Notes: generated by a model from the letters alone, not told the origin. Numbered from the whole stretch's first letter, positions 5,318 to 58,787 are shown. The stretch: DNA of 63,100 bases, filler included, from Candidatus Hydrogenedentota bacterium (GCA_040752395.1; 4 parts of 4 records of this genome joined end to end with filler, not necessarily neighbours in it); one strand, 5' to 3'. Translations and numbers: made by a program.

Positions 5318-5433
5318 CTCCTCTGAAAAACATTGTAACTCTAATGATATCAAGTAGAAGCAAGAAGCAAGATAAACAAACATCTGGTTTTTCATACGTT
5401 GTGTAGAGCGCAAACCGCGCTCATGAGTACTCC
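5318..5433 (-). mobile_element. Modular heptamer element (CCTCTGAAAAAC family)
   Basis: 5320-5414 matches 23258-23352 at 93 of 95 nt; contains AGAAGCA repeats; CTCC at both ends. Confidence 0.8.
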
Positions 5434-5622
5434 CCTTTAAAGTGTCTCACGTTTCAGTGGAGCAGTATAATCATATTGCCACTCCCCAAAGAATTCTCTT
5501 GATTTTTTTAGACAATTTGTTTATTAAAAGATTTTAAAAGACTTGTGCAACACAGGCTCATTTGTCAAAATTTTTAGGTTATACATGCATTACCATAAAT
5601 ACTTAGAATGGAGGTTTGAACA

Positions 5623-5811
5623 ATGAAACCTACTAATATCAAAGAGGAAGTATACCATCTGTTAGAGAAGCTGCCCAAAGATGCAACATGGGACGACCTA
5701 ATGGATGAGATCTATGTTCGACAGGCTATCGAATCAGGGCTTAAAGATAGTGAGGCTGGTCGGACTACAGATGTCAAGGAAGTCCGTGCTAAATTTGGAC
5801 TATCAAAATGA
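5623..5811 (+). CDS. Putative antitoxin of a ParE/RelE-type TA pair
   Basis: 62 aa, GGAGG SD, ATGA overlap with the toxin, AIESGLKDSEAGR-type motif. Confidence 0.8.
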   Translation: MKPTNIKEEVYHLLEKLPKDATWDDLMDEIYVRQAIESGLKDSEAGRTTDVKEVRAKFGLSK

Positions 5812-6095
5812 GAGTACATTGGACAAATAATGCAATAACACATCTTGTGGATATTTATGAATATATTGCCCATGATTCACCTGTATATGCTAAACGGATG
5901 GTAGATCGGCTAACGAGACGGTCAGAACAGATAGCAGACTTTCCAATGTCAGGGCGTATGGTATCAGAATATGAAGTAGATGACATACGCGAAGTGATAG
6001 AGAAGCCATATCGAATTATTTATCGGATAAAACCGGATCAAATAGATGTTTTGGCGGTAATTCACTGTGCACAACTATTGCCAGAAGAGATATAG
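5808..6095 (+). CDS. RelE/ParE family toxin
   Basis: VHWTNNA..IYEYIA.DSP..A, FPMSGR, YRIIYRI, VLAVIH. Confidence 0.9.
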   Translation: MRVHWTNNAITHLVDIYEYIAHDSPVYAKRMVDRLTRRSEQIADFPMSGRMVSEYEVDDIREVIEKPYRIIYRIKPDQIDVLAVIHCAQLLPEEI

Positions 6096-6104
6096 GTGAA
6101 CTGC

Positions 6105-6219
6105 TATACTTTCTTTATAAATCTTCCTACAGCTTGCGACCTGCCGCAGGCTTTAAAATCATCGCTCTGACAATTGTTAAAGCATAACTTTTTCATAAAT
6201 TTTAATATGTTCTGATATA
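6105..6219. repeat. 115-bp direct repeat, copy 2
   Basis: Matches 5117-5231. Confidence 0.95.
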
Positions 6220-7304
6220 AACCGCGGTAAATCATATTTTTCAATAACTGTTTTTACACCGTTTTGTCCCATTATATCTTTTAAACATCTATCTTTTAAT
6301 ACCTTACATATCTTATCAGCACAATCCGCTACATCCTGTGGCTTAAAAAGATAGCCGTTCTGACCATCATTAATTATTTCCTTTAGACCACCGGTACAAC
6401 TCGCAACTACAGGTGTTCCGCAAATTAATGATTCTAATGCAACGCGGCCGAATGCTTCCCACAAAGAAGGTATAACTACTACATCAAATATTTTATACAA
6501 AGCATAAAAATTTCTTTGATAACCCAATGTGATGACATTATTCTTTAACAGATCGTCCCGGTTAATTAATGAATCAATCTCTTTTTTCAGCGGACCATCA
6601 CCTATTAAAACGGTCTTGGTTCTATGATGTTTTTTTAAAACTTCCCTGAATGCCTTCAAGTAAAAAAGATGGCCCTTCTGTCTCGTCATCCTTCCAATAA
6701 AACCTATGTATTGATAGTTTTCATCCCAATTTATCTTTGCTTTCCATGTCTTATCATCCTGATCCGAAAATTTATTAAACATAGTTGTATCAATACAGTT
6801 GTATATATTTATCAGTTTATCCTCTTTTATATTGAGTTTTTCAAGAGAGTCTTTTCTTATGCTCTCTGATATTGTAACTATGAACTCAAAATTATTTTCT
6901 AATATTCTTTTATATATTCTCGTATATAGTCCGCTATCTACACATCCATTTTTATCTAAAAACAAAAAATCATGTATGGTTGTTATCAAAGGGAGCTTTT
7001 TATGAAATATCGTGGAAAGATATGAATGATAATCAGCGTTCCTTAAATGCGAATGAATTATATCTACATCATCTTTTTTAATTACATTAATTAATTTAAA
7101 AGTTGATCCGAAGTTCCATTTATTTAACAAATCTATTTCATAAGTTTTAATCCCGATCTGTCTAAGTTCTTCTGTAACAGGCCCACCTGGCTGAATAACA
7201 ACCACTACTTCTATCCCTCTCTCTTTTAATCCTTTTGAAAGAAGATATGTACTTATTTCACTCCCACCAAACCCTGAATTCCCCTGTACCTGCAGAATCC
7301 TCAT
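6177..7304 (-). CDS. Glycosyltransferase family 4
   Basis: GFGGSE, PSLWEAFGRVALESLICGTPVV. Confidence 0.92.
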   Translation of the reverse strand: MRILQVQGNSGFGGSEISTYLLSKGLKERGIEVVVVIQPGGPVTEELRQIGIKTYEIDLLNKWNFGSTFKLINVIKKDDVDIIHSHLRNADYHSYLSTIFHKKLPLITTIHDFLFLDKNGCVDSGLYTRIYKRILENNFEFIVTISESIRKDSLEKLNIKEDKLINIYNCIDTTMFNKFSDQDDKTWKAKINWDENYQYIGFIGRMTRQKGHLFYLKAFREVLKKHHRTKTVLIGDGPLKKEIDSLINRDDLLKNNVITLGYQRNFYALYKIFDVVVIPSLWEAFGRVALESLICGTPVVASCTGGLKEIINDGQNGYLFKPQDVADCADKICKVLKDRCLKDIMGQNGVKTVIEKYDLPRFISEHIKIYEKVML

Positions 7305-7355
7305 TGATAAATATCCTTGACTCTTACATATACTTCTACTTTATTATAATTTAAT

Positions 7356-8783
7356 ATGAATAAAAAATTGTCAATTCAATTGAAAACAGGCCTTCATCTT
7401 TCTATTATAATCATTTTTATATCTTTTATCCTAAAATATTTCCAGCCATCGTTCAGTATGCATGGTGATGATTGTTATTTCTTTTTTCTTGCGCAAGAAA
7501 TCGCTGAAAAATCTGGTTTCATCGATCCTGTTATCCCGCCAAAAGAAGTGCCTTTTACACTCTATCCACTGCTTATTTCATTCTTTGTGCCCACGAAGTC
7601 AGTGCCAAATATAAATTCTAATCTCCTATCTATCAAAATACTCTCTTTATTATTCACAATTATATCACTTGTTTTTATTATATATATAGGACGTAGCCTG
7701 AACCTGTCTCGTTCTTTATTATTAATACTCTATTGTTTATCCCCTTTTGTTATATATTATAGCTCACAAATATTGCCTGAAACTGGCTTGCTGTTATTAG
7801 TCGTTCTCATATTGTACGGTATGTGGAATAAAACTTTGTCTGGCTCAATAATTTCTACGGTATGCATCGTCATCCTTTACTTCTTTGATAACTCAGGAAG
7901 ATTCTATGCTCTGATATTTCTATTCTCTTATTTAATCAATCCATTAATTTTTTTAAAAAATAAAATATTTAAAATAATATGGTTACTTATAATAATTGGG
8001 ATTGGATATCTCTTAAACCTCTATCAATATCTTCTGGTCAACGTTGATACTCTGAAAATTATTATCTCTTATTTTATAAAGTATTACCCTGGTTATTTCT
8101 TTTTCCCGCTGCTTAAATATGGTATCTCTCAAAAATTCGTTTTTTTGTTTTCCATCCCATTAATTATAATCTTTTATTATATAATTTCAATCGGACTGCT
8201 CAATTACTATAAAACTAATCCACATTTACTTGTCGTTTTTACCTTACCTTTGCTCACTCTTCCGTTTACTGGATTTACTGAATCAGGAAGATTCATCTTT
8301 CCTTTATATCCTATTTTAATCTTATCTATTACATCCTTTATTAAAAATTATTACCCAAATTTTATTAATAAATTATCATTAATCCTGTTTATATTTTATT
8401 TCATTCTATCGTTTTTATTCTACCACATTACTTTTGAACCATATACACCTGAATATAAATCCTTCAATTCATCTGTAATTTTATCAACCGATCGCTATGC
8501 AGATACATCTTCTCTTTTAATCCTTGGTAAACGCCATTACTATCCCTTCTTAAAAAATAAAAATGTTTTACTCCTTAGACCATCTCTATCCAATCCATTA
8601 CCAGAACATATCATAAAAAACTTTGCTCATAATGGTATTGTTTTAATCGCTGATTCATTAAAAGGAAAAGAACTCCATAATAATGAACTCGAATATATTC
8701 AATCACAGAATGTGTGGAAATTATTAAACGACGATGGTATAACCCGGGTATTTTATTTACAGGAGACCGCGGTTGTAGAATAA
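7356..8783 (+). CDS. Polytopic membrane protein, possible GT-C (ArnT/PMT-like) glycosyltransferase
   Basis: Many transmembrane segments, early GDD loop, YPLL and RFIFPLYP; located in a glycan locus. Confidence 0.55.
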   Translation: MNKKLSIQLKTGLHLSIIIIFISFILKYFQPSFSMHGDDCYFFFLAQEIAEKSGFIDPVIPPKEVPFTLYPLLISFFVPTKSVPNINSNLLSIKILSLLFTIISLVFIIYIGRSLNLSRSLLLILYCLSPFVIYYSSQILPETGLLLLVVLILYGMWNKTLSGSIISTVCIVILYFFDNSGRFYALIFLFSYLINPLIFLKNKIFKIIWLLIIIGIGYLLNLYQYLLVNVDTLKIIISYFIKYYPGYFFFPLLKYGISQKFVFLFSIPLIIIFYYIISIGLLNYYKTNPHLLVVFTLPLLTLPFTGFTESGRFIFPLYPILILSITSFIKNYYPNFINKLSLILFIFYFILSFLFYHITFEPYTPEYKSFNSSVILSTDRYADTSSLLILGKRHYYPFLKNKNVLLLRPSLSNPLPEHIIKNFAHNGIVLIADSLKGKELHNNELEYIQSQNVWKLLNDDGITRVFYLQETAVVE

Positions 8784-8791
8784 TTTTATCT

Positions 8792-8903
8792 GAGGTCTCT
8801 GAAAAATTTTAAGCTTGATTTTTAAAGAATTACGAGCATTAAAAAGCTAGTTTTATAAAATTTTCAAACAAGTTCCTTAAAATAGGGTTTTAAAAGAAAT
8901 CTC
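8792..8903. mobile_element. MITE with GAG(G/A)TCTCT-type ends
   Basis: GAGGTCTCT...AGAAATCTC ends flanked by 6-bp direct repeat TTATCT; right end matches the reverse complement of 27773-27793. Confidence 0.65.
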
Positions 8904-8997
8904 TTATCTTTTCAATTGAGAGTGACCATTCCATATTAGCAATAGGCCACAAGATATAGAAGATATTACTAACATTAAAAATAAATAAAGAAATGTT

Positions 8998-10089
8998 TTA
9001 CAAACTACTTTCTTTTAATATTTCAACAAGTCTTTTTATATTTGTCTTTAAATCAAATTTTTCTTTAATCGTATTATAACTATTTATTGATAGCGTTTCG
9101 TATAATTTTTTATCTTGGATAATCTGACTGATAATATTTTCAATATTTTGAAAATTATCCGGCTCTACTAAAAAGCCGTTTTCAGCGTTTCTAACTATTT
9201 CAGGGATGCCTGAAATAGCAGTAGCTATTACCGGGATACCCCTTGCCATCGCTTCCATAAAAGAAACCGGTATACCGTCACGATCACCCTGAGAATCAAT
9301 TAATGCTAATAAAACAAAGAGCGAGCATTGCTCAAGAATATTCATAGCTTCATTATTAGAAAGTGCTCCATAAAATATTACCTTGCCTTTCATTCCACAT
9401 CTTGTGCTTAACTTAACCAGATTATTGTATTCGGGACCATTCCCAATATAATGCAAAGTCGTATTATAACCCATTTCATTCAAATATGCGGTCATTTGAA
9501 TTGCATTATCTACACCCTTTTTCTTTACACTCCTTGCAATAGTGCAGATTTGAATATTATCTTTATGTAATAAATTGATTCTTGGCAGTTTAGGGATCTC
9601 AACACCTAAATAGTTAACGTATATTTTATTATCTATTCTACCAAAATTTTCATAAATATAATTTCTATTATATTCAGAGATACAGATAACATACTCAGCC
9701 TTTTCTATTTTTTTTCTTAAATTTTTTGCATCTACAAACAAATCTCGTGCGTGGCAGGTAAACCCATAGGGAATATTATACCTCTTTGATAGCCATAAAC
9801 CAACTGATGCAGGCGCTGACGCATAATGGCAATGTATAATGTCCGGCTTAAACTCCTCTATAATTGAAACTAACTTCAGCAATTTCAATGGAAGTGTTAG
9901 TGATTCCCTGTAAGTTGAAAAGTCAAGCATATTTTTAAAGGAAGCGAGAGTAAATGACAGCGGATTTTCTCTAATAGTAAAGACATTCAAGTTAATCTCG
10001 TGAAAATTTTGTTGTATGCTATTTATCTCGTTTGTAATAAAGGTTTCAGATAGTGTTGGTTTATGATCAAGTATATACAGAATCTTCAT
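8998..10089 (-). CDS. Glycosyltransferase family 4 (WcaL-like)
   Basis: SETFITNEI, HARDLF, GDRDGIPVSFMEAMARG; ATG at 10089 preferred. Confidence 0.9.
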   Translation of the reverse strand: MKILYILDHKPTLSETFITNEINSIQQNFHEINLNVFTIRENPLSFTLASFKNMLDFSTYRESLTLPLKLLKLVSIIEEFKPDIIHCHYASAPASVGLWLSKRYNIPYGFTCHARDLFVDAKNLRKKIEKAEYVICISEYNRNYIYENFGRIDNKIYVNYLGVEIPKLPRINLLHKDNIQICTIARSVKKKGVDNAIQMTAYLNEMGYNTTLHYIGNGPEYNNLVKLSTRCGMKGKVIFYGALSNNEAMNILEQCSLFVLLALIDSQGDRDGIPVSFMEAMARGIPVIATAISGIPEIVRNAENGFLVEPDNFQNIENIISQIIQDKKLYETLSINSYNTIKEKFDLKTNIKRLVEILKESSL

Positions 10090-10113
10090 AATCAATCAGC
10101 GTCAGTTATTTTG

Positions 10114-10166
10114 CGATTGCCACGAGAGTGGCAATCAATATAAAAGTGTCGCACTGACGCGACACC
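10114..10166. repeat. Two adjacent short hairpins (REP-like)
   Basis: GATTGCCAC-gaga-GTGGCAATC and GTGTCGC-actgac-GCGACAC. Confidence 0.6.
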
Positions 10167-10167
10167 T

Positions 10168-11475
10168 TCATCTCAAAATAGGACCATCATGGATGGATGA
10201 GCCTATAATCTGCTTTAAATTATAACTAAATAAGGTTTTTAATCTTTTCCAATCCCCTTTCTTTATTATTAGAAGTTCATTTATTTCTGCATTTTTAAAT
10301 CTTATATAAAAAAATATCATAATGACCATAACTATAAAATTACTTATAATATATGAGAAAATAATCCCATATATAAAGTATAAATACCCAAATACAGAAT
10401 AAAATATTAAAAGAATCATACAATGTATTGCTGTTATCAGTGAGACAAGACCAGCTTTCCCATTGCCGAGAAGATTTGCAGATATTATTCTTACTGGAAC
10501 CATTGCTATCACACCTATTATTATATAATTGAAATAAATAATACTCTTATAAAAGGTATCTCCAAAGAAAATCGGCACAATAATAGGCATTATATAATAA
10601 TATACAGTCACAATAACTATAGATATAAAAAATATGTTTCGAAGCATCAACCGTGTAATATCTTCTTTCTCTCCTTTTGCTTCGCTACTTTGTATTCTTA
10701 AAAGAATTATTCTTACCGAATCCGGGAGCAGCCATATCGTTTCTGCGATAAGCAACGCTACTGAATATAATCCAACCTCTGACTTATTGCAGTATAAATT
10801 TATAAAATAATAAGCTGTTCGGTTAATTAAGAGTTGAAAAAACACTCCTACCTGCGATTTAAAACCCCATATTAGAGTATTCTTATAAACCTTCCAGTCA
10901 ATTTTAAAAACATATTTCTTTTCTTTTAAGTTAGACAAAATATAGAATATCTCAACAGCATACGAAAGACACCAAAATGCTATCACTCTATTAACATTGC
11001 TTATAATAAATTCTTTAAAAAATATTAATGTTGTTAAAAAGGTTATCGACCTTATAACCAGCGAAAAATTAAAAAATTTTGTTTCGGCGTCCACAATGAA
11101 TAGTCTTAAAAGTATCGTTTCCACACTGACCCAGAAAATACCTAAAAAATAGATAACTATATTGAATCTATGAACTTTTTCCATTATTATAGCGCATAAT
11201 ATTGTCAGAAAGAAAATAATTGATAGATGAAAAAAAGTATTGCTCTTTATTTTTGAGTGAATATCTGGTATTGATCCTGTTTTACCTGAAAAATAAATAT
11301 TGGCATTTGAAAGCCCGCAATCAAATATCATCGAAATAACAGCTATATCCAGAGTAAACAGAGCAAAATATCCTTTACCCGAGGGCCCCAACCATCTCGC
11401 AATAAGAACATTTGTAATGAAACCCACCACTAAAATAATTATGCGCGTTATAAAAAATATTATACTATCTTTCAT
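10168..11475 (-). CDS. wzx: Wzx-like oligosaccharide flippase
   Basis: ARWLGPSGKG, VGLYSVA motifs, many transmembrane segments. Confidence 0.85.
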   Translation of the reverse strand: MKDSIIFFITRIIILVVGFITNVLIARWLGPSGKGYFALFTLDIAVISMIFDCGLSNANIYFSGKTGSIPDIHSKIKSNTFFHLSIIFFLTILCAIIMEKVHRFNIVIYFLGIFWVSVETILLRLFIVDAETKFFNFSLVIRSITFLTTLIFFKEFIISNVNRVIAFWCLSYAVEIFYILSNLKEKKYVFKIDWKVYKNTLIWGFKSQVGVFFQLLINRTAYYFINLYCNKSEVGLYSVALLIAETIWLLPDSVRIILLRIQSSEAKGEKEDITRLMLRNIFFISIVIVTVYYYIMPIIVPIFFGDTFYKSIIYFNYIIIGVIAMVPVRIISANLLGNGKAGLVSLITAIHCMILLIFYSVFGYLYFIYGIIFSYIISNFIVMVIMIFFYIRFKNAEINELLIIKKGDWKRLKTLFSYNLKQIIGSSIHDGPILR

Positions 11476-12716
11476 ATATCTTTATTATACTTATTTTTTA
11501 AATATCTTCCATAAACAACCGCTCCCATAACCCAGAAATGGAAAAGAACAAAGTGATGACCAGATGCCAACCCCTGTAGCAAACTCGATATCATCCCAAA
11601 ACTTATAAGCGTATACAAAATATGTCTGTTTTCTAAACTAAACCCTGTTTTAATTATAAATAAAAATATGCCTATAAACGAGCTCAACCCAAATATCCCG
11701 CGTTCACTTAATATGTCAAGAAACCAATTATGGATAGTCGTCCCGATCCCGTATGCCCCACGGCCACAAATGAATGATGTTAACGTCATCGTATCAAAAA
11801 ATAGGCTATAAAATCTTATTCTATCCTTATACGAATTTGTGTGTGTTATAAACAGGTAACTATCCCATCTCACTGCTGTATCGATACATAGAGGAACAAT
11901 AAAAATAAAAAGTATCGCGACCACAAAAATAATTTTATTAATTTTGAATTTCTTTTTCATATTCACAATAAAACTTATTAATATAATCAATAGCAAACTT
12001 ACAATCCCCATCTTGACTTTGGTATAAAAAAGCATAAAAACTGATATTAGAAACAAAAAAAATACTTTTTTATAATTTCTACTGAATGCATAATAGTAAT
12101 ACATCGCCGATAGAAACAAAAGATAGTTCGTAGAATGATACTCACGCGTAAAAAGCAACCTGTACCATAATTTTTCTCTATCAAATATTATCACGAAAAT
12201 AGCATACGCTATATGAATGATAAACGACGCGATTAGTAAATCGAATATAATCTCTTCCTTAACTTCAATAAATGAAAATAATATGGAAACGATTAAAAAT
12301 ATATAGAATAACGAGAAATAGTTTAATATAAACCTTATATTACTTTTAGCCGGCTGACAATAGATGTACGGCAGAAAACCCGATATAATGAAAATTATGC
12401 TTAGCATAAAAACCGGTTCTAAAAAATATCTTGATATTTTTTTACCGTATTGTAATAGTAGATATATGGTTGAGAACACGGCAACTATATGAAGCGGTTT
12501 GATGTAAAAATCAAAACGTTCTATAAAGAAACTACCACTGCCTTCAAAAAATGATAATATAACAGCCATATAAACTATATACGAATTCCTATAATATATT
12601 AATGCAAAAACAAATAACCAGAATATAATTTTTACATATATATTTTCTATGAATAAAATTCCTATTGTTATAATTAAAGTATATCTGATTTCCTTTAAGG
12701 TATCTATTAAAGGCAT
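11472..12716 (-). CDS. O-antigen polymerase/ligase-like membrane protein
   Basis: Polytopic; GRGAYG...HNWFLDILSERGIFG (Wzy_C-like). Confidence 0.75.
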   Translation of the reverse strand: MPLIDTLKEIRYTLIITIGILFIENIYVKIIFWLFVFALIYYRNSYIVYMAVILSFFEGSGSFFIERFDFYIKPLHIVAVFSTIYLLLQYGKKISRYFLEPVFMLSIIFIISGFLPYIYCQPAKSNIRFILNYFSLFYIFLIVSILFSFIEVKEEIIFDLLIASFIIHIAYAIFVIIFDREKLWYRLLFTREYHSTNYLLFLSAMYYYYAFSRNYKKVFFLFLISVFMLFYTKVKMGIVSLLLIILISFIVNMKKKFKINKIIFVVAILFIFIVPLCIDTAVRWDSYLFITHTNSYKDRIRFYSLFFDTMTLTSFICGRGAYGIGTTIHNWFLDILSERGIFGLSSFIGIFLFIIKTGFSLENRHILYTLISFGMISSLLQGLASGHHFVLFHFWVMGAVVYGRYLKNKYNKDI

Positions 12717-12775
12717 AGATTATATATTTAATATATTTTCTTGTTTAATCAATCTATTTTTTATAGAAATCACTT

Positions 12776-13852
12776 ATGAATAAGGACAGATTATCACAGG
12801 TTTCAAAATCTCTTATCATTCTATGGTTTCTATCTATCCCGCTCTCTATTACATTAGCTGATACACTCTTTACGATTTTAATTTTTCTTTCGTTATTTAA
12901 AATTAAATCTTCCGGTTTTTTAAAAAATTATTGGCCTACCTGGCTCTTTTTATCGGTGATAATTATAATCTCATTATTCGCACCAGATAGCTTGCTTGCT
13001 TTGAAAAGATCCAAAAGGTTTCTGTCATTTTTAATTATTATTCCTATTTCAATATTTGATTTTTCAATAAACGATTTTAAAAAATTATCTTTGATGTTTT
13101 TAGTAGAAATACTGGTGCTTGAAATTATATCAATTGTTTTTAAAAATTACGACCAAAGTTCCAGACTCTATATGGCTATCCACCCTCTACACCCAGGCCT
13201 CTTTGGCTCTTTGATGGGTTTTGCTATCTTAAATGTCTTGTCCAAAAATGTTAAATATCTTAAATTACTTGTTATTGTTATACTACTTTTTGGAATCTAT
13301 AAAACTCAAAGCAGGATTACTTTTATTTTATTAGTATTTCTTTTACCATATATTTTATATAAAAATAAACTTAATTATAAAATAATATCCGGAATACTTG
13401 TTTTAATGATTTTCTTTATTATTATGATCTTAATATCAAGATATAAACTTTATATTAATACAATTGATGACCCGAGTTTAAAGATGCGTTTCATCTTATG
13501 GAAGATGGGTCTTATGATGTTTCTCGATAATTGGCTTTGGGGTGTTGGTCCGGGACATATCGAATCTGTATATAATAAATATGCTTTTGATTGGTTAAAA
13601 ACCTCTTTATGGGATGACCTCCATTCTGATTATATCCAGATTTTAGTAGAATATGGTATAATCGGATTTTTAAGTTACATATCCTATATTTTTTTTACGT
13701 TAAAATGTTCTTATAAACTCTCTTGTAACTATTTTCTTTTATTAATATTTATTTTATTATGTGGATGTTTTCAATTGATGTTATTTTCATCACTATTCAA
13801 CAGAATCATAGCTTTTGTTTCAGGGGTAATTATATACTGCTCCTCTGATTAG
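12776..13852 (+). CDS. O-antigen ligase family protein
   Basis: TQSR, R..LWK.G..MF.DN..WGVGPG, LHSDYIQILVEYGIIG. Confidence 0.85.
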   Translation: MNKDRLSQVSKSLIILWFLSIPLSITLADTLFTILIFLSLFKIKSSGFLKNYWPTWLFLSVIIIISLFAPDSLLALKRSKRFLSFLIIIPISIFDFSINDFKKLSLMFLVEILVLEIISIVFKNYDQSSRLYMAIHPLHPGLFGSLMGFAILNVLSKNVKYLKLLVIVILLFGIYKTQSRITFILLVFLLPYILYKNKLNYKIISGILVLMIFFIIMILISRYKLYINTIDDPSLKMRFILWKMGLMMFLDNWLWGVGPGHIESVYNKYAFDWLKTSLWDDLHSDYIQILVEYGIIGFLSYISYIFFTLKCSYKLSCNYFLLLIFILLCGCFQLMLFSSLFNRIIAFVSGVIIYCSSD

Positions 13853-13865
13853 AATGGTCAGGTCA

Positions 13866-13917
13866 AAATGTGCCGAAAATTTACTAAAAAATGTCTCGAC
13901 AAACGGGGAGCACTACA
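13866..13917. repeat. 52-bp dispersed repeat, copy 1
   Basis: Reverse complement of 63049-63100 with 1 mismatch. Confidence 0.9.
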
Positions 13918-13960
13918 CCTCTTTAATATTGTGGTATCTTATCTATAAAGAAAAGCCAAA

Positions 13961-48501: not shown

Positions 48502-48516
48502 GTAGTTCCTCTTTAT

Positions 48517-48939
48517 ATGGCTGTTAATATCTCGAAATTACTTTTTGATAAATTAATAGATTATAGTTTAAGTAAACTACCTTTCGAGTCCTGTGGGATG
48601 CTAACCTTAAAAGATTCTCATATTATTGATTTTTATCCAGTGATTAATATAAGCCCTTATAGACATAAGTTTGAGATGAACAAAGAAGAGTTTGAAAAGG
48701 TTTATAGGATTTATAAACACGATAGTGAAAAAAGCATTGGTTTGTTTCATTCTCATACAGAGGATTTTGCTGTACCTTCTTTAGCTGATCTGGACAATTT
48801 TAAATCATTTAATTTTTCATTTCTTTTAATTATCTCTCATTTATATAGAGATAAACCTGAGGTCAGGTTATATTTTATAAAAGAAAAAAGCCTGGTTTCT
48901 GAAGATATAAGAGTAAAGGAAGTTATACAAAATTATTGA
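48517..48939 (+). CDS. JAB/Mov34 (M67) metallopeptidase
   Basis: PFESCGML, FHSH...PSLAD (HxHx7Sx2D). Confidence 0.88.
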   Translation: MAVNISKLLFDKLIDYSLSKLPFESCGMLTLKDSHIIDFYPVINISPYRHKFEMNKEEFEKVYRIYKHDSEKSIGLFHSHTEDFAVPSLADLDNFKSFNFSFLLIISHLYRDKPEVRLYFIKEKSLVSEDIRVKEVIQNY

Positions 48940-49011
48940 CTGGTTTTAGAGTATTGAATAAAAGAGGAGTAGAGCAAGACATAAGTGGCTGGCCGAGATC
49001 TTTAAGAAGAT

Positions 49012-51693: not shown

Positions 51694-51697
51694 AAAA

Positions 51698-51809
51698 TAG
51701 GAGACAGGAGACAGAATACAGAAGACAGAAGGAGAAGACACAAAGGAGTTCGTAATAATAGATCCGAGCTTCGAGCTCCGAACTCCGAACTCCGAACTTT
51801 TTCAAAGGA
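51698..51809 (+). mobile_element. Heptamer tract plus AGGA-bounded (CCGAACT)n element
   Basis: (AGRAGAC)n then AGGAG-TTCGTAATAATAG...CCGAACTTTTTCAA-AGGA; homolog at 46799-46844. Confidence 0.78.
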
Positions 51810-51815
51810 TGTAAT

Positions 51816-52712
51816 ATGGAAAATGAGGTATCGGGTAGAAAACAGAAGATTGAATTGATTGAGAGATTATCAACAAGTAATGACCCGGATAATCTTGCAC
51901 GACTTGTTAATTTTCTTCTTGATGATGATAACGAGATAAGGAGGGTTGTTATCGTATCTTTGACCCGGATTAATAGAGAAGTGATATTAGAATCTTTTCC
52001 AAAGATTGAGGACCGACTTAAACCATTTGTAGCTAAATTATTACAAAAGATTGATACAGGCATCGCAGACAAGTTGGTCAGAGATTTGCAGCATATGGAT
52101 TCAAACAGGAGAGTCAGAGCCATAGATTTAATGGTGCGGCTGGGGAAAAAAGAAGGTGTACGAGAAGCCCTTAAAAATGTAATTAAAGATAATGACTCTA
52201 AAGTAAGGGCTTCTTCTATTAAAGCAATAGGTTTACTCGGGGATAGCAGGGACTTAGGTGACTTAATAAGTATGGTTAATGACCCTGACCCACGTGTCAG
52301 AGCAAATGTAATCGAGGCTTTTGAAAAAATAGGAGATGATAGTGTTGTATGGCTGCTTCTTAGATTTTCGTCGGATGAAAATAATCGAATCAGAGCCAAT
52401 GCTATGAAAGCTTTATGGCACTTTGGTTATAAAGATATAGAAGGTAAGTTGAAGAAGATGTTATTTGATGAGAATGAATGGATGAGAGCGAGTGCATGCT
52501 GGGTGATAGGTGAGTTACGAGATGAAAATTTATTATCTTTATTATTAATGCGTCTGAATGATACGAGCCCAAACGTACGAATTAATATTGTAAGAGCACT
52601 TGATAAAATAGGTTCAGCACTATGTATAAAAAAACTTGAAGAAATGCAGGACGACCCATCTGCTGAAGTAAGAGCTGCTGTTATAAATGTTTTATCAAGA
52701 ATAGGTAGATAA
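51816..52712 (+). CDS. HEAT-repeat protein
   Basis: Repeated D.D.RVRA.A..A.G units. Confidence 0.88.
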   Translation: MENEVSGRKQKIELIERLSTSNDPDNLARLVNFLLDDDNEIRRVVIVSLTRINREVILESFPKIEDRLKPFVAKLLQKIDTGIADKLVRDLQHMDSNRRVRAIDLMVRLGKKEGVREALKNVIKDNDSKVRASSIKAIGLLGDSRDLGDLISMVNDPDPRVRANVIEAFEKIGDDSVVWLLLRFSSDENNRIRANAMKALWHFGYKDIEGKLKKMLFDENEWMRASACWVIGELRDENLLSLLLMRLNDTSPNVRINIVRALDKIGSALCIKKLEEMQDDPSAEVRAAVINVLSRIGR

Positions 52713-52716
52713 TTGG

Positions 52717-53511
52717 ATGTTAATAGGTATAATTCAAATCTCGGCAACCTCTGATTATAAATATAACTTTGATAAAGTCTGTGGATACGTGATAAAAATG
52801 ACGGATTGTGAATTGATAGTTCTACCTGAAGTTTTCCTTTATCGTGGAGATAATAGAAAGATTAAAGAGGTGTATAATTTTTATAGAAAAAAGGTTTATC
52901 CTTATTTGTTGGATTTTTCAAAAAAAAATAATCTATGTTTAATTGCAGGAACACTTCTTATCCCTTTTTATAGAAAATTTAAAAATACAGCTGAAGTTTT
53001 ATATAAAGGAGATAAAATAGCTAATTATACAAAAATACATCTTTTTAAAATAGACTCTGGAGAAAAAAAGATAAATGAAGGAGAATATCTATCAAGTGGT
53101 AAAAGACCCGTTGTATTCAAGTTCAATGATTGGCTGATCGGTTTAGGGATATGTTTTGATTTACGTTTCCCTGAACTTTTCAGATATTATGCAAAAAAGA
53201 GGGTCGATATAATTGTGATACCATCGAATTTTTTATATAAAACAGGGAAAAAACACTGGACGGTTTTATTAAGAGCAAGAGCGATTGAAAACCAGTGTTT
53301 TGTAATAGCTGCAAATCAATGCGGGATTCATCCATACCTCAAAATACCAGCCTATGGCCATTCTATGGTGATAGGTCCTGATGGCGAAATAGTAGACGAG
53401 ATAAGAAACAGGGAAGGCATTATAAAGGTTGATATATCTAAAAAGCAGATAATAGAGAGTAGAACGCAACTCTGTTCTTTGCCGCGTGGTCTCAGCCGTA
53501 ACTCGGGTTAG
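52717..53511 (+). CDS. Carbon-nitrogen hydrolase (Nit-like)
   Basis: VLPE, YTKIHLF, ICFDLRFPEL, LRARAIENQ, YGHSMV. Confidence 0.92.
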   Translation: MLIGIIQISATSDYKYNFDKVCGYVIKMTDCELIVLPEVFLYRGDNRKIKEVYNFYRKKVYPYLLDFSKKNNLCLIAGTLLIPFYRKFKNTAEVLYKGDKIANYTKIHLFKIDSGEKKINEGEYLSSGKRPVVFKFNDWLIGLGICFDLRFPELFRYYAKKRVDIIVIPSNFLYKTGKKHWTVLLRARAIENQCFVIAANQCGIHPYLKIPAYGHSMVIGPDGEIVDEIRNREGIIKVDISKKQIIESRTQLCSLPRGLSRNSG

Positions 53512-53577
53512 AAAATATTGACCTGGCAGCGGTTAGCTAATATCAGTGGTTTGATATGTGGGTTCTCTCATCAGGAT

Positions 53578-54456
53578 TTATCGAATATCTTTTATAAGAT
53601 ATTTCCAGGGATCGACCTTTGTCTTGTTTATACTAATCTCATAATGGAGATGAGGGCCTGTTGACAAACCTGAGTTTCCGAGTAAACCTATTACATCACC
53701 CCGCTTAACTTTCTGACCATCTTTTACTTTTATCTTATAAAGATGACCATACATCGTTTCATAATTGAACCTGTGTTTAATAACAACGCAGTTTCCAAAA
53801 CCGATTTTCCTGTCTGCAAATGTTACTGCACCGTCAGCTGTGGCAAAAATTTTTGATTTATAAGGAGCAACTATATCTATTCCTTCGTGAAACTCTAAAA
53901 GATAGGTAAAAGGATTTATTCGATAGCCAAAGGGGGAGCTTATATAATATGAAGTTGATAAATCAATCGGCCAGCCAATCGGCGTTGCCTTAAATATATT
54001 TGTAAGTTCACGATAAAACTCCTCAAGTTTTAGAAGATCCTGGTCAACAGAACCTTTATTAATAGATTTTATAATAAGATCATTGCCATCAACACTCCCA
54101 GCAATAACGTTATTTACCTTGTTATCTAATGGAAAGCCACCAATATTTTTTGTAACATCGTCTTTCGATGAAGAGAATGCATAACGATGAAGTTTAGACA
54201 GCAGTGTTTCGTAAACATCGATTTTTTGTGATTGATTGTTTATTTCTTTTTGTTGTTTGTAAGTTATATCCATAAAATGAATCACATCTTTTATATGAGA
54301 GAGACTGCTTAAAATAGGTATTATAAATAATACTAAAACACCTAAAAGACTCGCATATAAAAGGTTCTTTGATATTTTAAGGGAGAACATTCTTTTTGAA
54401 TCAGGTGTTACAATAACAAATGTAAATCGTTTTTTAATCTTCCATCTGCTTGACAT
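53578..54456 (-). CDS. M23 family peptidase
   Basis: FHEGIDI, YGHL, STGPHLHYEI, N-terminal TM helix. Confidence 0.93.
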   Translation of the reverse strand: MSSRWKIKKRFTFVIVTPDSKRMFSLKISKNLLYASLLGVLVLFIIPILSSLSHIKDVIHFMDITYKQQKEINNQSQKIDVYETLLSKLHRYAFSSSKDDVTKNIGGFPLDNKVNNVIAGSVDGNDLIIKSINKGSVDQDLLKLEEFYRELTNIFKATPIGWPIDLSTSYYISSPFGYRINPFTYLLEFHEGIDIVAPYKSKIFATADGAVTFADRKIGFGNCVVIKHRFNYETMYGHLYKIKVKDGQKVKRGDVIGLLGNSGLSTGPHLHYEISINKTKVDPWKYLIKDIR

Positions 54457-54477
54457 ATTAAATTCCAGGGTGCCTAT

Positions 54478-54669
54478 CTAAAGTATTTTTATTATTTTAT
54501 TATTTTTAATACAATTGGTGCAGACATAGCCGCGGGTCTTTTTTTCATTTAATACAAATGTTAATTTCTGCAAATTAGGATTAAATCTACGATTGGTCTT
54601 TCTGTTTGAATGGCTTACATTATGTCCTGAAGACGATTTCTTACCGCAGACTTTACACTCTTTACTCAT
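54478..54669 (-). CDS. rpmB: 50S ribosomal protein L28
   Basis: [33 protein letters not shown]. Confidence 0.96.
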
Positions 54670-54747
54670 ATATTAATTTTACTCATAATTAAGATATTTG
54701 TCAAATTTTTTATTTATTTTTTTTGGAAATTATGTAAACTTTAATCT

Positions 54748-56742
54748 ATGTGGGATGAATTGAAAAAAAAAGGATTAATAACATTAAAAGGTATAGGCGA
54801 ATATAGAGTCAGGCTATTAAAGATACTGGGAATCGAAACTGCTTATGATTTAATATTTTATTTTCCAAGAACTTATAAAATTAGATTAAGACCTGTAAAA
54901 ATTTCTAATATTAAAACAGGGCTTTATGCTATTGCTGGCATTATTCTAAAAAAAGATTTTAGTACCCCTTATGGAAATTATAAAAAAAGATATCTTGTGA
55001 TCACAGTCTCTGATAATAGCGGGAGTGTAAAATTAATAGCATTTCAAAGGAGGGCTTTGTTTTTGAATTCTTCTTTTAAAAAGGGTGATAATGTTTATGT
55101 GGAGGGACATTTTGTAAAAGAGGGAGATATTCTTCAATCCACAAGATTTGATATAGAAAAAGATACTAAAAATAGATTTTCTATATTACCTGTTTATCCG
55201 TTAAAAGAGGGTGGTGTTGGTCAGAAGTTTTTAAGAAATATAATACATTTTGCTTTAAGTAATTCTGATTTTTCAAATTACGGGTACAGTGTATCTTTAT
55301 TTAAAAGGGCTGGTTTAAAGACACCTGATAATGCAATAAAAGGTCTACATTTTCCCGACTCTTTAGAGGATGCTGAAAAATCAAGAAAAACATTTGCTTT
55401 TTTAAAACTAATAGAATGGAAGAAATCCTCGATTTTAGAGAGAAGAAAAAGGATGAAGTATTACATAAAACCGGTTAATATTAATCTAAGTAAATTTGAT
55501 TTTCTTTACAAACTGCCGTATAAATTAACTACCAGTCAGATAGATTTTTTGACTAAAATAAAACAAGACCTTTCTTTTAATTATCCTTTTGAGAGGTTAT
55601 TACAGGGCGAGGTTGGAACAGGTAAAACAATAGTAGCGATAACTTCTATAATAATGGCTTTAGAGAATGGTGGTCAGGGAGCATTTGTTGTTCCTACTGA
55701 GATACTTGCTCAGCAAATCTTCTGGAATTATAAAGAAATAATAGAAAAGAACACAAAACTGAAAACCGCTGTATTATATGGTGGTTTGTCCGAGAAAGAT
55801 AAAAATAATATTTGTGATATGATACAAGATGGGAAGATTGATATAGTATTTGGTACCCATAGTTTATTTTCAGAAAAAGTATATTTCAAAGATTTACGTG
55901 TGCTGGTAATCGATGAAGAGCATAGATTCGGTGTTAACCAGAAGTTGAAACTTCTACTTAATAAAGGTTCGAGACCACATCTTGTGGTAATGACAGCAAC
56001 GCCTATACCGCGTTCCTGTGCGATAGTATTGTATGGCGGTATGGATATCTCTTTTCTTTTAGAACAACCTTTTGGTCAAAGAAATGTTAAAACTCTATTA
56101 TTAAAAAGATCATCGAAGAAAAAGTTGTTCGAAGGATTGAAAAGAGAGATAAATAAAGGAAGATCCGTGTATTATATCTGCCCTCTGATAGAAGAAATGG
56201 AGAATAAGAGTGACGTAGCAAATGTGATAGAGAGAACAAAAGAAATCATCTCCTGTGGATTTAAGGCTAATTGTTTATACAGCAGGTTATCGACTCAGGA
56301 AAAAATAAAAGTTTTAGACGAATTTAAGAAAAAAGAGATAGACATCCTTGTCTCAACAACTGTTATTGAGGTTGGACTTGACATACATAATGCAGGTATA
56401 ATTGTTATAGAGAATCCGGAGCGGTTCGGTATGGCGCAGCTTCATCAGTTGAGGGGAAGGGTAGGTCGGGATGGACGGCTGGGTTATTGTGTTTTATTTT
56501 ATGATGATAATCTAAATTACATAAGTTTGAAGAGGTTACGTGCTTTTGCAAGGCAAACATCAGGATATAATGTTTCAATGGAGGATTTAAAACTTCGCGG
56601 GCCCGGAGAGATTGAAGGCATAAAACAGACCGGATTTCACTTTATGTATCCATTTGAGCCGATCAAAGATGATGACCTTATGAAAACATTAGACACTTTC
56701 AACGACGAAGAAATTGTTAATGTACCCCCCAGTTATAGGTGA
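54748..56742 (+). CDS. recG: ATP-dependent DNA helicase RecG
   Basis: LLQGEVGTGKT, DEEHRFG, TATPIPR, QLHQLRGRVGR, DLKLRGPGE. Confidence 0.93.
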   Translation: MWDELKKKGLITLKGIGEYRVRLLKILGIETAYDLIFYFPRTYKIRLRPVKISNIKTGLYAIAGIILKKDFSTPYGNYKKRYLVITVSDNSGSVKLIAFQRRALFLNSSFKKGDNVYVEGHFVKEGDILQSTRFDIEKDTKNRFSILPVYPLKEGGVGQKFLRNIIHFALSNSDFSNYGYSVSLFKRAGLKTPDNAIKGLHFPDSLEDAEKSRKTFAFLKLIEWKKSSILERRKRMKYYIKPVNINLSKFDFLYKLPYKLTTSQIDFLTKIKQDLSFNYPFERLLQGEVGTGKTIVAITSIIMALENGGQGAFVVPTEILAQQIFWNYKEIIEKNTKLKTAVLYGGLSEKDKNNICDMIQDGKIDIVFGTHSLFSEKVYFKDLRVLVIDEEHRFGVNQKLKLLLNKGSRPHLVVMTATPIPRSCAIVLYGGMDISFLLEQPFGQRNVKTLLLKRSSKKKLFEGLKREINKGRSVYYICPLIEEMENKSDVANVIERTKEIISCGFKANCLYSRLSTQEKIKVLDEFKKKEIDILVSTTVIEVGLDIHNAGIIVIENPERFGMAQLHQLRGRVGRDGRLGYCVLFYDDNLNYISLKRLRAFARQTSGYNVSMEDLKLRGPGEIEGIKQTGFHFMYPFEPIKDDDLMKTLDTFNDEEIVNVPPSYR

Positions 56743-56806
56743 AATTAAGAAGCAAGATAACGAAATTCTACAGCGCATTAATTTGGACAAATCAGGTTGT
56801 AGACAA

Positions 56807-57139
56807 TCAAAAAGGAGGATTCCCCAGAGCCTCGTTTGATTTTTCCTGCAGCGGTTCTTCTATAGATATATCTTTTTGCTGTTTTACTTTTTCATATTCA
56901 TCGAGGATGAGTTTCTGCAGGTCTTCGCGTGCGTCTCTTGTTATAGGGAAAAATATATCTTCGAATTTTCCTTCGCCTGTGCCTTTACTTGGCATCGAGA
57001 CAAATAAACCATTCTGACCCTCAATGATTCTAAAACCACGCACTACAAAACATTCATTAATAAGAAGGTCAGCAAAACCACGTAGTTTATCCTTATTAAA
57101 TATTTTGAGTCTCGAGACTTTTAAATTTAAACCTTCCAT
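56807..57139 (-). CDS. spoVG: SpoVG family nucleic-acid-binding protein
   Basis: FVVRGFRIIEGQNGLFVSMPS, FEDIFFPI. Confidence 0.9.
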   Translation of the reverse strand: MEGLNLKVSRLKIFNKDKLRGFADLLINECFVVRGFRIIEGQNGLFVSMPSKGTGEGKFEDIFFPITRDAREDLQKLILDEYEKVKQQKDISIEEPLQEKSNEALGNPPF

Positions 57140-57145
57140 AAAATC

Positions 57146-57193
57146 CTCCTATGAAAAGAAGCAAGAAGCAAGATAACGAAAAAAGTAAGAAGT
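57146..57193 (-). repeat. Internally deleted modular element at the spoVG SD
   Basis: CTCCTATGAAAA-GAAGCAAGAAGCAAGATAACGAAAAAGTAAGAAGTG, matching modules of the 46663 copy. Confidence 0.7.
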
Positions 57194-57198
57194 GTATA

Positions 57199-58071
57199 CT
57201 AGGCATTTACAAGCAAATGAAATAGTTCAGCCTTTTTTAATTCGTTGGATAGATTCATAACAATGTATTCTATATCAGTTTTTGATAAACCTGTCATTTT
57301 CCATGCTATCTCACTTAGAGGTGGGATTCTACCTTCTTTCAGACCTATTTTTTGGGAATAAATTATTATGTCTGATATATGAACTATAGCAGGAAAAATA
57401 AAGAACTCCTTTGCTTCTTCTGGTTTATGATGGTAATGTATGGAGTACTCAAGTGATAGAGGTAATTTCCAGTGTTTAGCGAGCCACATTCCCACATCTG
57501 AATGGTTAAACCCGAATACAGATTCTTCTGCTTCAAAATCAAGATAATTGTTTTCCTTTATAGCTTTTATGACATCTTCGTAGTCTTTTCTTGCATATTC
57601 AATCATAATTATTTTACCGAGGTCGTGTAATATTCCTGAAACAAAAACTTCTTCCTGTTCTTTCTCGAGTCTCATTCTCTGGGCTATCATTCGCGAGCAT
57701 ACGCCAACACCGATTGAATGTTGCCAGAAAAGATTCAAATTAATAATCTCTTTTATTTCTGTTGAGGTATTGGTCATTTTAAATCTATCGAAAACAGTTG
57801 TAGATAAAGCTAAACTTTTTATAGTATTAAATCCTAAAATTATGATAGCCTGGGTTACAGTTGAGATCTTGCCTGAAAACCCATAAAAAGCCGAGTTTAC
57901 AAGTCTTAATATTTTTGAAAGAAATGCCTGGTCATGTTGAACCAGATTATTTATTTCCTGTGGTGTTACTTCAGGGTCTTCGAGCTTTTTTAGTATTTCT
58001 TGTATAATTATAGGTAGGGTGGGAAGTTTTTCAATATGTTCTACCAATTTTTTAATACCGGATTTCACCAT
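57199..58071 (-). CDS. HDOD domain protein
   Basis: LPTLP, ILRLVNSAFYG, FWQHS, ILHDLGK, W.LP. Confidence 0.93.
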   Translation of the reverse strand: MVKSGIKKLVEHIEKLPTLPIIIQEILKKLEDPEVTPQEINNLVQHDQAFLSKILRLVNSAFYGFSGKISTVTQAIIILGFNTIKSLALSTTVFDRFKMTNTSTEIKEIINLNLFWQHSIGVGVCSRMIAQRMRLEKEQEEVFVSGILHDLGKIIMIEYARKDYEDVIKAIKENNYLDFEAEESVFGFNHSDVGMWLAKHWKLPLSLEYSIHYHHKPEEAKEFFIFPAIVHISDIIIYSQKIGLKEGRIPPLSEIAWKMTGLSKTDIEYIVMNLSNELKKAELFHLLVNA

Positions 58072-58103
58072 AAAATTTTCAGTCTCTTTGTATTTTGCAT
58101 TTT

Positions 58104-58172
58104 TTTACCCTGTTAAATAAGTTAAAATCATATCTAATCATAATTGAATACTCCTATATCTAACGGGGTGAA
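58104..58172. mobile_element. Short MITE-like element with 16-bp inverted ends
   Basis: TTTACCCTGTTAAATA / TATCTAACGGGGTGAA (13 of 16 match). Confidence 0.6.
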
Positions 58173-58196
58173 ACATTCCATAGGATATTGCATAAC

Positions 58197-58718
58197 TCAT
58201 TCAGAATCATATTTTATGATGGTATATACAGGATAATTCTTTAGTTTTTCTCTACCTTTTAAAAAGCTGAGTTCTATTAAGAAAAATATCTCAACAACAA
58301 TACCACCGAGTTTTTCAACAAGTTCAACAGATGCTTTAGCAGTCCCTCCTGTTGCAATAAGGTCATCTATAATTAACACCCGTTCCCCTTTTACTATCGC
58401 ATCTCTGTGTATTTCTATGCTATCAGTGCCGTATTCAAGTTCATAAGAGGCAGAGATAGTTTCTGCAGGCAGTTTACCTGGTTTTCTTGCAGGCACAAAT
58501 CCTATACCAAGATTAGATGCTAATGATGCACCGAAGATAAATCCCCTTGATTCTATCCCAACAATTTTTTGTAAATTATATTTTTTATATCTTTCAGTTA
58601 ATTCCAAGATAAGATTAGAAAATACTTTTCCGTTTTTAACAAGTGTTGTTATGTCTTTAAAAATGATCCCTTTTTTAGGAAAATTAGGGACATCTCTTAT
58701 AAATTCGGCATAATTCAT
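58197..58718 (-). CDS. apt: Adenine phosphoribosyltransferase
   Basis: [35 protein letters not shown]; likely true start ATG 58718. Confidence 0.96.
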
Positions 58719-58724
58719 AATCGT

Positions 58725-58787
58725 CTCCTCTGAAAAACGCTGTAACTCTAATAATATCAAATAGAAGCAAGAGGCAAGAAGCAAGGA
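58725..58787 (-). mobile_element. Modular heptamer element between upp and apt
   Basis: CTCCTCTGAAAAACGCTGTAACTCTAATAATATCAAAT(AGAAGCA)x3. Confidence 0.82.

Follow-up and report, generated by a model that had tools for sequence, protein, structure and literature searches.

The Repeat Family and Its Setting

The window considered here, i.e., the whole stretch of DNA that was analysed, comprises 63,100 nt from Candidatus Hydrogenedentota bacterium (GCA_040752395.1) and harbours a family of short, non-coding intergenic repeats that end in a Shine-Dalgarno (SD) sequence, mostly a few nucleotides ahead of a gene. The window consists of four contigs, joined by N44-TTAATTAATTAA-N44 at 15863–15962, 31782–31881, and 47483–47582, and has a GC content of ~34%. 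Three copies of the repeat are cut by contig ends, and three of the six contig ends at the joints fall within elements. A preceding sequence-only reading of this DNA had described the family as a candidate MITE (miniature inverted-repeat transposable element) targeting SD sites, with a conserved terminus that recurs on all four contigs.

This recurrence is well founded. With up to one mismatch allowed, the terminal motif TTTTTCASAGGA matches the window 12 times against 1.56 expected, a number reached in none of 100 dinucleotide-preserving shuffles, and the variant GAACTTTTTCRAAGGA matches four times against 0.24. Three of the 12 matches (6583, 40069, and the weak one at 40319) are not clean family members. 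All copies listed before (5318, 15721, 23257, 32002, 46663, 46799, 47731, 51809, the degenerate 57146, and 58725) were found again; to these, two degenerate copies are added, one at 61178 ahead of an LpoB-like gene and one at 40319, antisense at the 3′ end of a UvrD-like gene. The genes following the copies encode a carbamoyltransferase, a sulfatase, a response regulator, a HEAT protein, SpoVG, a phosphoribosyltransferase adjoining Upp (apt), and a nitroreductase, and these earlier assignments agree with Pfam; the LpoB-like lipoprotein gene lies at 61196. Judged by eye, the N-termini of these proteins have a native appearance, e.g., MNILGIS.. in the carbamoyltransferase and a lipobox in the LpoB-like protein.

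The core of the family is a 31-nt right module, TTATTAGAGTTAC-N4-TTTTTCAGAGGAG, terminating in the SD sequence GAGGAG. Across the eight copies compared—seven from the window and one from L001, a contig found in a public genome—this module is 84–100% identical. Similarity among the copies halts exactly at AGGA(G), and the following 5–13 nt up to the ATG are unrelated. Both copies that are remote from any start (5319 and 31990) likewise terminate in GAGGAG; therefore, the SD is part of the repeated unit.

Placement at Gene Starts

As had been claimed, the element ends at SD spacing of unrelated genes. Measured from the last A of AGGA to the ATG, the distance is 5 nt for the carbamoyltransferase, 6 nt for the sulfatase, the HEAT protein, and the LpoB-like protein, 7 nt for apt, 8 nt for the response regulator-STAS gene, and, outside the 5–8 nt seen for most, 13 nt for the nitroreductase; in the case of spoVG, AGGAGG is followed by 5 nt and the ATG. 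In five of the seven window copies of the 31-nt module, AGGA is found 5–13 nt before a Pfam-supported start. Against a random intergenic end in random orientation (7,029 nt of intergenic DNA, 52 starts), for which the chance per copy is 0.033, this placement has P ~8 × 10^-7. When the two copies of a shorter, v-type element and the degenerate copy at 61178 are added, seven out of ten are at SD spacing (P ~5 × 10^-9). The two canonical copies that are not at an SD position lie 110 nt upstream of a methyltransferase gene (5319) and 114 nt upstream of ndk (31990), each being followed by a stretch that looks promoter-like by eye.

Orientation follows the genes as well, with eight of nine cores of the pyrimidine-rich module described below directed toward a co-oriented downstream gene. 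In several co-directional spacers, element DNA extends from the preceding stop all the way to the SD, namely in upp–apt (75 nt), HDOD–spoVG (59 nt), tRNA-Val–thrS (55 nt), and GH31–sulfatase; the reported occupation of operon junctions is seen at upp–apt, GH31–sulfatase, and ValRS–HEAT.

An SD-like motif (AGGA, GGAG, or GAGG, 3–14 nt before the start of the longest open reading frame, ORF) precedes 21 of the 52 genes, and 9 of these 21 motifs are element-associated, a local and rough count that is based on longest-ORF starts. Most of the 52 starts are preceded by A/T-rich, SD-free sequence. The organism seems to be a low-SD user, and the counts suggest that the family is a large contributor of its SDs. 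This fits more easily with an element bringing its own SD than with one that only finds SDs already present.

Copied DNA and the GH31–Sulfatase Junction

Near-identical stretches connect copies at unrelated loci. The copies at 5319 and 31990 (31945–32003) share 59 nt at 100% identity, those at 5319 and 23257 (23257–23352) share 96 nt at 98%, and window positions 15721–15805 match positions 53–137 of L001 over 85 nt at 100%, with different genes downstream. In these near-identical pairs, the flanking genes are unrelated and the shared stretches take in linkers that differ in other copies. Since the identity covers stretches far longer than a binding site, it points to recently copied DNA and argues against a merely conserved operator; the earlier notion of a real, multi-copy, non-coding repeat family is borne out by 98–100% identity over 59–96 nt at unrelated loci.

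The GH31 ORF reads 11 codons into the element and stops at 23330; its 14 aligned homologues (50–58% identical) end at least eight alignment columns earlier, save for 1–3 stray aligned residues in three of them. As judged from this alignment, the ancestral GH31 stop codon was displaced by the element, a footprint of insertion between closely spaced genes; at least one such event is thus shown. The left AAAGGAG of the 23257 copy corresponds to Lys-Glu codons of GH31, near the position where the homologues end. When the DNA between the flanking AGGA repeats is deleted by hand, the GH31 frame runs into a TGA overlapping the sulfatase ATG; such a stop/ATG overlap is a common operon junction, and the resulting C-terminus falls within the length range of the homologues. 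The left boundary is uncertain by 6–15 nt; hence, the reconstruction of the empty site is not unique and is used as evidence for insertion only. It fits insertion at a pre-existing SD, but is not decisive, given also that the C-termini of the GH31 homologues are not conserved and that the three short copies described below have no left AGGA.

Mosaic Architecture of the Copies

Left of the 31-nt module, the family is a mosaic and not one sequence, the same right end being joined to at least three different heptamer arrays; the single two-ended element envisaged before has, thus, to be given up. In five copies, the left side is a pyrimidine-rich (P) module with TCTTGCT heptamers, the core of which, TWATCTTGCTTCTTGCTTCT, has nine matches in the window against 0.04 expected. 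The left side of three copies (15721, 47717, and L001) forms a long imperfect hairpin, built from GGCTCCG-type and GTAGCCC-type heptamers, with another hairpin of GAGTCGT and GACTCAA units ahead of it; for a 115-nt stretch around each of these three, a fold of −32 to −43 kcal/mol is predicted. A left module, TTTGCGCTCTACACA, is present in the three long copies and in L001, with three exact matches in the window; in two of the three long copies, a 5–6-bp GC hairpin lies ahead of it, 7–9 nt inside the left AGGAG.

The shorter v-type element (two copies) is composed of AGGAG, TTCGTAATAATAG, CTCCGAA heptamers, and CTTTTTCRAAGGA. The S-type element (four to five copies) forms an imperfect palindrome, the loop of which holds the pyrimidine module; at its right end stands GATTACAAYG, a relative of the GAGTTACAATG portion of the 31-nt module. 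At least seven types of heptamer units are combined with conserved linkers and the 31-nt SD-bearing end. Among 65 tandem-repeat (TRF) rows, 24 have period 7, mostly from intergenic spacers or arrays at contig ends; those inside ORFs include 21482–21534, 17577–17591, 26138–26152, and 61851–61873. The individual copies and their relatives are as follows.

1066–1150, plus strand: S-type element with the P module in the palindrome loop; right end of the GGGATACC/GATTACAA type, related to GAGTTACAATG; without the SD module.
5318–5436, minus strand: long T-type copy, 110 nt upstream of the methyltransferase gene and not at SD spacing; in order, left AGGGGAG, small hairpin with the TTTGCGCTCTACACA module, TCTTGCT heptamers, and the 31-nt module ending in GAGGAG.
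15720–15862, minus strand: G-type copy cut by the contig end; hairpin arrays of the GACTCAA type and of the GGCTCCG/GTAGCCC type, then the 31-nt right module; carbamoyltransferase ATG 5 nt after AGGA.
23256–23372, minus strand: long T-type copy between GH31 and sulfatase; AGGA 6 nt before the sulfatase ATG.
30035–30089, plus strand: P-like pyrimidine heptamer tract forming the whole tRNA-Val/thrS spacer; ends in AAAGGA, 8 nt before the thrS ATG.
31882–32002, plus strand: copy at the start of a contig, separated by 114 nt from the downstream gene ndk and not at SD spacing; in order, GTAGCCC heptamers, linker, TCTTGCT heptamers, and right module.
40319–40432, minus strand: S-type element with a degenerate TTTTTGAGAGGA, antisense at the 3′ end of the UvrD-like helicase gene; no ORF after it.
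46663–46803, minus strand: long T-type copy; AGGA 13 nt before the nitroreductase ATG.
46799–46845, minus strand: v-type element in tandem with the preceding copy; AGGAG, TTCGTAATAATAG, CTCCGAA-type heptamers, and CTTTTTCGAAGGAG.
47583–47729, plus strand: G-type copy located where a contig begins; ATG of the response-regulator/STAS gene 8 nt after AGGA.
51694–51810, plus strand: ValRS–HEAT spacer; purine-rich GGAGACA-type heptamers, then the v-type element of the next line.
51744–51810, plus strand: v-type element; AAAGGA 6 nt before the HEAT-protein ATG.
57140–57198, minus strand: P module alone, forming the whole HDOD–spoVG spacer, then AGGAGG, 5 nt, and the ATG; without the 31-nt module and without a left AGGA (the copy previously called degenerate).
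58725–58793, minus strand: short copy forming the entire upp–apt spacer; TCTTGCT-type heptamers and right module; AGGA 7 nt before the apt ATG; left AGGA absent.
61020–61190, plus strand: S-type hairpin element and P module, then ~60 nt of other sequence and CTTTTTCGGAGGA 6 nt before the ATG of the LpoB-like lipoprotein; a degenerate relative.

Material resembling the P module is also met within a gene. At 21482–21534 (minus strand; ORF 20840–21577), a pyrimidine heptamer tract of period 7 and 7.6 copies sits at the 5′ end of a CBM9-domain gene and encodes a hydrophobic, signal-peptide-like N-terminus; this may be a case of repeat DNA taken over for coding. SpoVG's gene has CGTTATCTTGCTTCTT, a piece of the P module, on either side (56743–56806 and 57140–57198), in the same orientation.

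Two further observations concern the surroundings of individual copies. A 115-nt direct duplication (5117–5231 and 6105–6219, 98% identical), made up of 23 nt of upstream sequence and the first 92 nt of the methyltransferase gene, flanks an 873-nt segment with the 5319 copy, a ParE-like toxin gene (5808–6095), and a small ORF upstream of it; this segment looks like a toxin-antitoxin cassette plus repeat inserted between glycosyltransferase and methyltransferase genes. Directly upstream of the tandem elements at 46663–46845, a small ORF without assigned function (46889–47272) contains two arrays of 21-nt tandem repeats (46999–47166; up to 3.5 copies, 81–90% matches).

Distribution outside the Window

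A pattern scan of public genome contigs gave, among the matches listed, at least one true match, namely L001 (G001:C128; 2198 nt), a contig of an unclassified metagenome-assembled genome (MAG), G001, which begins inside an element. The rest of G001 contains no other copy (TTTTTCASAGGA, three hits versus one in the control; P core, none). Since this remainder is devoid of the family, holds no GH31 orthologue, and encodes a ValRS that is 52% identical, L001 is probably mis-binned. In 41 relatives of G001, the local identity of ValRS is at most 63% and no GH31 orthologue was detected at E ≤1e-100; in the five relatives of highest local identity, the motif is at chance level. The scan of metagenome contigs returned two hits, both chance matches in coding sequence, and that of viral contigs returned none for either the right module or the P core. 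For GH31 and ValRS, identity to public homologues reaches 58% and 59%, respectively, at best, the named hits being MAGs labelled Spirochaetota, Omnitrophota, or "bacterium". We regard the family as essentially private to this lineage.

Readings Set Aside

In order to assess terminal inverted repeats (TIRs), the left 35 nt were aligned locally with the reverse complement of the right 35 nt and the scores compared with those of shuffles. The scores of the long T-type copies were reached by fractions of 0.54, 0.99, and 0.74 of the shuffles; those of the v-type copies were marginal (0.15 and 0.04), resulting from GGAGTTCG pairing with heptamers. TIRs are, thus, absent and the family is therefore not a DDE-type MITE, so that the former label does not apply. 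A weak IS110-family hit is an artefact, caused by the helix-hairpin-helix motif in a ComEA-like protein.

An SD-sequestering riboregulator or thermosensor was likewise set aside; the pairing probability of the SD was not above that of shuffled-upstream controls in 10 copies (fractions 0.30–1.0), where row c46804v is uninformative owing to a mis-set SD position and L001 is not among the 10. The long copy at 46664 carries an SD, an ATG, and a 32-codon hydrophobic ORF (hand translation). A 1-nt indel breaks the frame in the 5319 copy and the ATG is missing in the 23257 copy (both by hand); therefore, a conserved small peptide was rejected.

Origin and Mode of Action

We interpret the family as a mobile, REP2/BOX-like, lineage-specific mosaic intergenic repeat that carries a portable SD, and assign a probability of roughly 0.6 to this reading. 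A copy is built of an optional left module (small GC hairpin plus TTTGCGCTCTACACA), at least one array of 7-nt tandem units of several types, some of them forming long imperfect hairpins, short linkers, and, finally, the conserved 31-nt right module ending in GAGGAG. Such DNA is copied between loci, as shown by the near-identical pairs, and recombination or slippage inside the heptamer arrays would probably reshuffle its modules. Where a copy abuts a gene start, the spacing of 5–13 nt from the ATG suggests that the terminal GAGGAG supplies or replaces the ribosome-binding site (RBS) of the gene; supplying the downstream RBS would enable the element to persist within operons. Since complete copies have AGGA(G) at either boundary, AGGA(G) is suggested as the joint at which elements insert or recombine.

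Several points weigh against this interpretation. The DNA covered amounts to the 63 kb window and one 2.2 kb contig (L001), hence, all frequencies are local, and the starts behind the SD statistics are longest-ORF guesses, except those with typical N-termini. Contexts like TTTTYRNAGGAG also precede the element-free genes at 28603 and 37001, and part of the terminal motif may be merely the RBS consensus of the organism. In agreement with the sequence-only reading, no transposase or recombinase was found among the 50 window ORFs scanned. The left AGGA is absent in three of the eight copies with a visible left side (upp–apt, spoVG, and tRNA-Val/thrS); therefore, an AGGA-to-AGGA architecture is not universal. 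Furthermore, 6–7 nt beside the left AGGAG differ between the otherwise 98% identical copies at 5319 and 23257, which makes the true left boundary uncertain by ~7–15 nt, and the left AGGAG might belong to the element and not to the target.

A further-reaching version, which we put forward tentatively and consider possible rather than probable, holds that AGGA(G), the core of the SD, would be the specific insertion or crossover site of a non-coding cassette that leaves a fresh SD at its 3′ end. Under such SD homing, n elements would be bounded by n+1 SD cores, and the mobilising activity could be a novel recombinase, an HUH-type enzyme, or microhomology-driven template switching. The left boundary reads [A/G]GGAG in all five copies with a left end, at 5430, 23366, 46799, 46840, and 51744, where the far-end GGAG/AGGA had been noted. 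At 46663–46845, one AGGAG (46799–46803) is common to two tandem elements, a v-type and a long T-type one, i.e., two elements with three AGGAGs. The proposal of AGGA(G) at both ends consequently holds for the five copies with a visible left end and fails for the three short copies at upp–apt, spoVG, and tRNA-Val/thrS.

A stricter model is that of a non-autonomous element moved by a dedicated enzyme (a transposase or a site-specific recombinase) whose gene lies elsewhere and which recognises the SD, the AGGA(G) target being either duplicated (target-site duplication) or entered 3′ of it, with the corollary that the downstream gene always keeps an SD. We consider this model doubtful. It accounts for [A/G]GGAG on both sides in five of five copies and for the n+1 cores of the tandem elements at 46663–46845, but the left AGGA is missing in the three short copies, and the mosaic left parts define no single donor element. 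The hand deletion at GH31–sulfatase, giving a stop that overlaps the sulfatase ATG, is in line with it, although that reconstruction is not unique and its left boundary is uncertain by 6–15 nt. The enrichment at SD spacing also speaks for it; however, two of the seven copies are not at an SD, and the occurrence of an SD-like motif in only 21 of 52 genes, with 9 of them element-associated, is easier to understand if the element brings the SD. In addition, the lack of TIRs excludes a DDE-type MITE, and none of the 50 ORFs scanned encodes the transposase or recombinase in question.

Quite unlikely is a non-mobile origin, according to which the 31-nt module would be the conserved 5′ leader or operator for one translational regulator (a protein or a small RNA) of a post-transcriptional regulon, with the heptamers arising from local slippage. 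Precedents are offered by the TAACTGA heptamers (MacGregor 2015, PMC4679880) and by the Neisseria REP2 regulon (Delihas 2011, PMC3184786), as far as the available parts of these papers describe them. The position fixed relative to start codons and the strong sense-strand bias (8/9 P cores) would suit such a leader, but two copies lie more than 100 nt upstream of genes, before promoter-like sequences, and one degenerate copy runs antisense within a gene's 3′ end. Moreover, the identity of 98–100% over 59–96 nt exceeds a binding site and includes linkers that are variable elsewhere, the downstream genes are functionally unrelated, and the GH31 stop codon has moved into the element. For the 10 copies tested, predicted SD pairing does not exceed that of composition-matched shuffles, and in Rfam, only tRNA-Val reaches the gathering score, with no hit at E ≤1 overlapping an element.

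Highly improbable is a portable promoter-plus-RBS cassette with transcription starting inside the right module, as proposed for Neisseria REP2 in the accessible part of the respective report (Delihas 2011, PMC3184786): while the right module includes a TACAAT-like hexamer and genes lie downstream of the copies at 5319 and 31990, the sigma-70 scan of 46000–63100 placed no site in any element (76 in total versus 74.2 expected from shuffles), no −35 hexamer is seen by eye 16–18 nt from TACAAT, canonical TTGACA/TATAAT promoters elsewhere in the window (partly by eye) indicate use of the standard consensus, and most copies are within apparent operons.

Other Features of the Window

Contig 1 (1–15862) is largely a polysaccharide-synthesis cluster with five glycosyltransferase genes (four GT4, one GT2), two Wzy-like genes, a flippase-like gene, a radical-SAM/B12 enzyme, and the carbamoyltransferase. 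A different repeat family, possibly a 3′-end element, is represented by a 52-nt inverted pair (13866–13917 and 63049–63100; 98% complementary), each member of which lies just downstream of a gene (12776–13852 and 61809–63020, respectively); the second copy is cut by the window end. At 26644–27754, a tandem duplication with a period of 586 nt comprises a retropepsin-like aspartyl-protease gene and its promoter-like upstream region, the upstream parts being 95% and the coding parts 76% identical. Overlapping HEPN and minimal-nucleotidyltransferase genes at 44972–45774 form a toxin-antitoxin-like module.

Comparison with Known Systems

In its way of working, the family appears closest, by analogy, to Neisseria REP2 and Borrelia IR-A/B. 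These were overlooked in the remark that no family of such behaviour is described; the parts of the source at hand present them as TIR-less intergenic repeats with an RBS directly upstream of genes (Delihas 2011, PMC3184786). REP2 is described there as a fairly uniform unit of 120–150 bp with promoter, RBS, and ATG, the genes of which are co-regulated (Delihas 2011, PMC3184786). Judging from the same excerpts, REP2 and Borrelia IR-A/IR-B share with the present family that they are short, intergenic, free of TIRs, equipped with internal stem-loops, located ahead of many unrelated ORFs, and RBS-bearing. REP2 holds both promoter and ATG, in contrast to this family, which has no detectable sigma-70 promoter and leaves the ATG outside the repeat. 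Compared with REP2 as described in that portion, and by description rather than by sequence, the present body is a mosaic of 7-nt arrays, lies inside operons, and is AGGA(G)-bounded.

In appearance, the family seems to resemble most the heptamer arrays upstream of starts in Beggiatoaceae and cyanobacteria, as portrayed in the available literature excerpts. The STRR sequences of cyanobacteria are heptamer repeats, too. According to the accessible sections of the relevant study, TAACTGA heptamers occur just upstream of starts in marine Beggiatoaceae, cyanobacteria, and some Bacteroidetes, and it has been suggested that they serve as sites for S1, Csp, or CsrA (MacGregor 2015, PMC4679880). Common features are tandem 7-nt intergenic units, mostly a few nucleotides before starts, downstream genes without a common function, and a proposed translational role; the mixed arrays of different heptamers in Microcystis, mentioned in the same sections, are a further parallel (MacGregor 2015, PMC4679880). 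There, however, one heptamer dominates, canonical SDs are rare (~10% of repeat spacers), and those sections describe no conserved non-repeat terminus. Here, at least seven unit types, conserved linkers, and the 31-nt SD-bearing end are found, and whole composites are copied between loci, in contrast to the TAACTGA repeats as covered there.

Non-autonomous elements derived from IS200/IS605, as well as REP/RAYT systems, have no TIRs, are strand-specific, insert beside a specific 4–5-nt sequence, and possess subterminal hairpins. They are candidates for a similar way of working, given the 5–6-bp GC hairpin 7–9 nt inside the left AGGAG in two of the three long copies; in contrast to them, the T-type copies have no consistent right-end hairpin, and no Y1/HUH transposase was seen in the window. 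Modular composite repeats are also represented by the BIMEs of E. coli, comparable in this respect to BOX. The BOX elements of Streptococcus pneumoniae, in the excerpt available, are modular composites with a variable tandem middle between conserved end modules, lie in transcribed intergenic regions, and can extend or create ORFs (Croucher 2011, PMC3049150). They differ, as far as that excerpt goes, in having TIRs and target-site duplications and in not being tied to an RBS, whereas the ends of the present family are not inverted repeats. Chunjie, a Geobacter uraniireducens MITE, found in an operon, is likewise small, non-coding, and multi-copy, in an AT-rich context with partial copies common, but the available passages give it 21-bp TIRs and 9-bp direct repeats (Delihas 2011, PMC3184786; Genes 2024 review, PMC10969869); the present family is without TIRs, and its flank, if a repeat, is specifically AGGA(G).

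RBS-carrying repeats are known from a few pathogens (REP2, Borrelia IR), as the excerpts at hand have it, and heptamer arrays at start codons are unexplained in cyanobacteria and Beggiatoaceae; this family unites both in a deeply branching, uncultured lineage, and it may illustrate how translation signals are created or rewired by mobile DNA and how such DNA survives in operons. An element inserting at SD sequences was not found described in the literature searched, most subscription journals being outside that search; if AGGAG is indeed an insertion site, this would be a target choice not described for any element found there. SD homing, if true, would allow selfish DNA to colonise operon junctions without polarity and, with most genes lacking an SD, would make a repeat family a major source and shaper of ribosome-binding sites. 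In contrast to REP2, the heptamer arrays, and BOX, the family described here has its conserved SD-bearing terminus together with many types of heptamers and with AGGA(G) boundaries.

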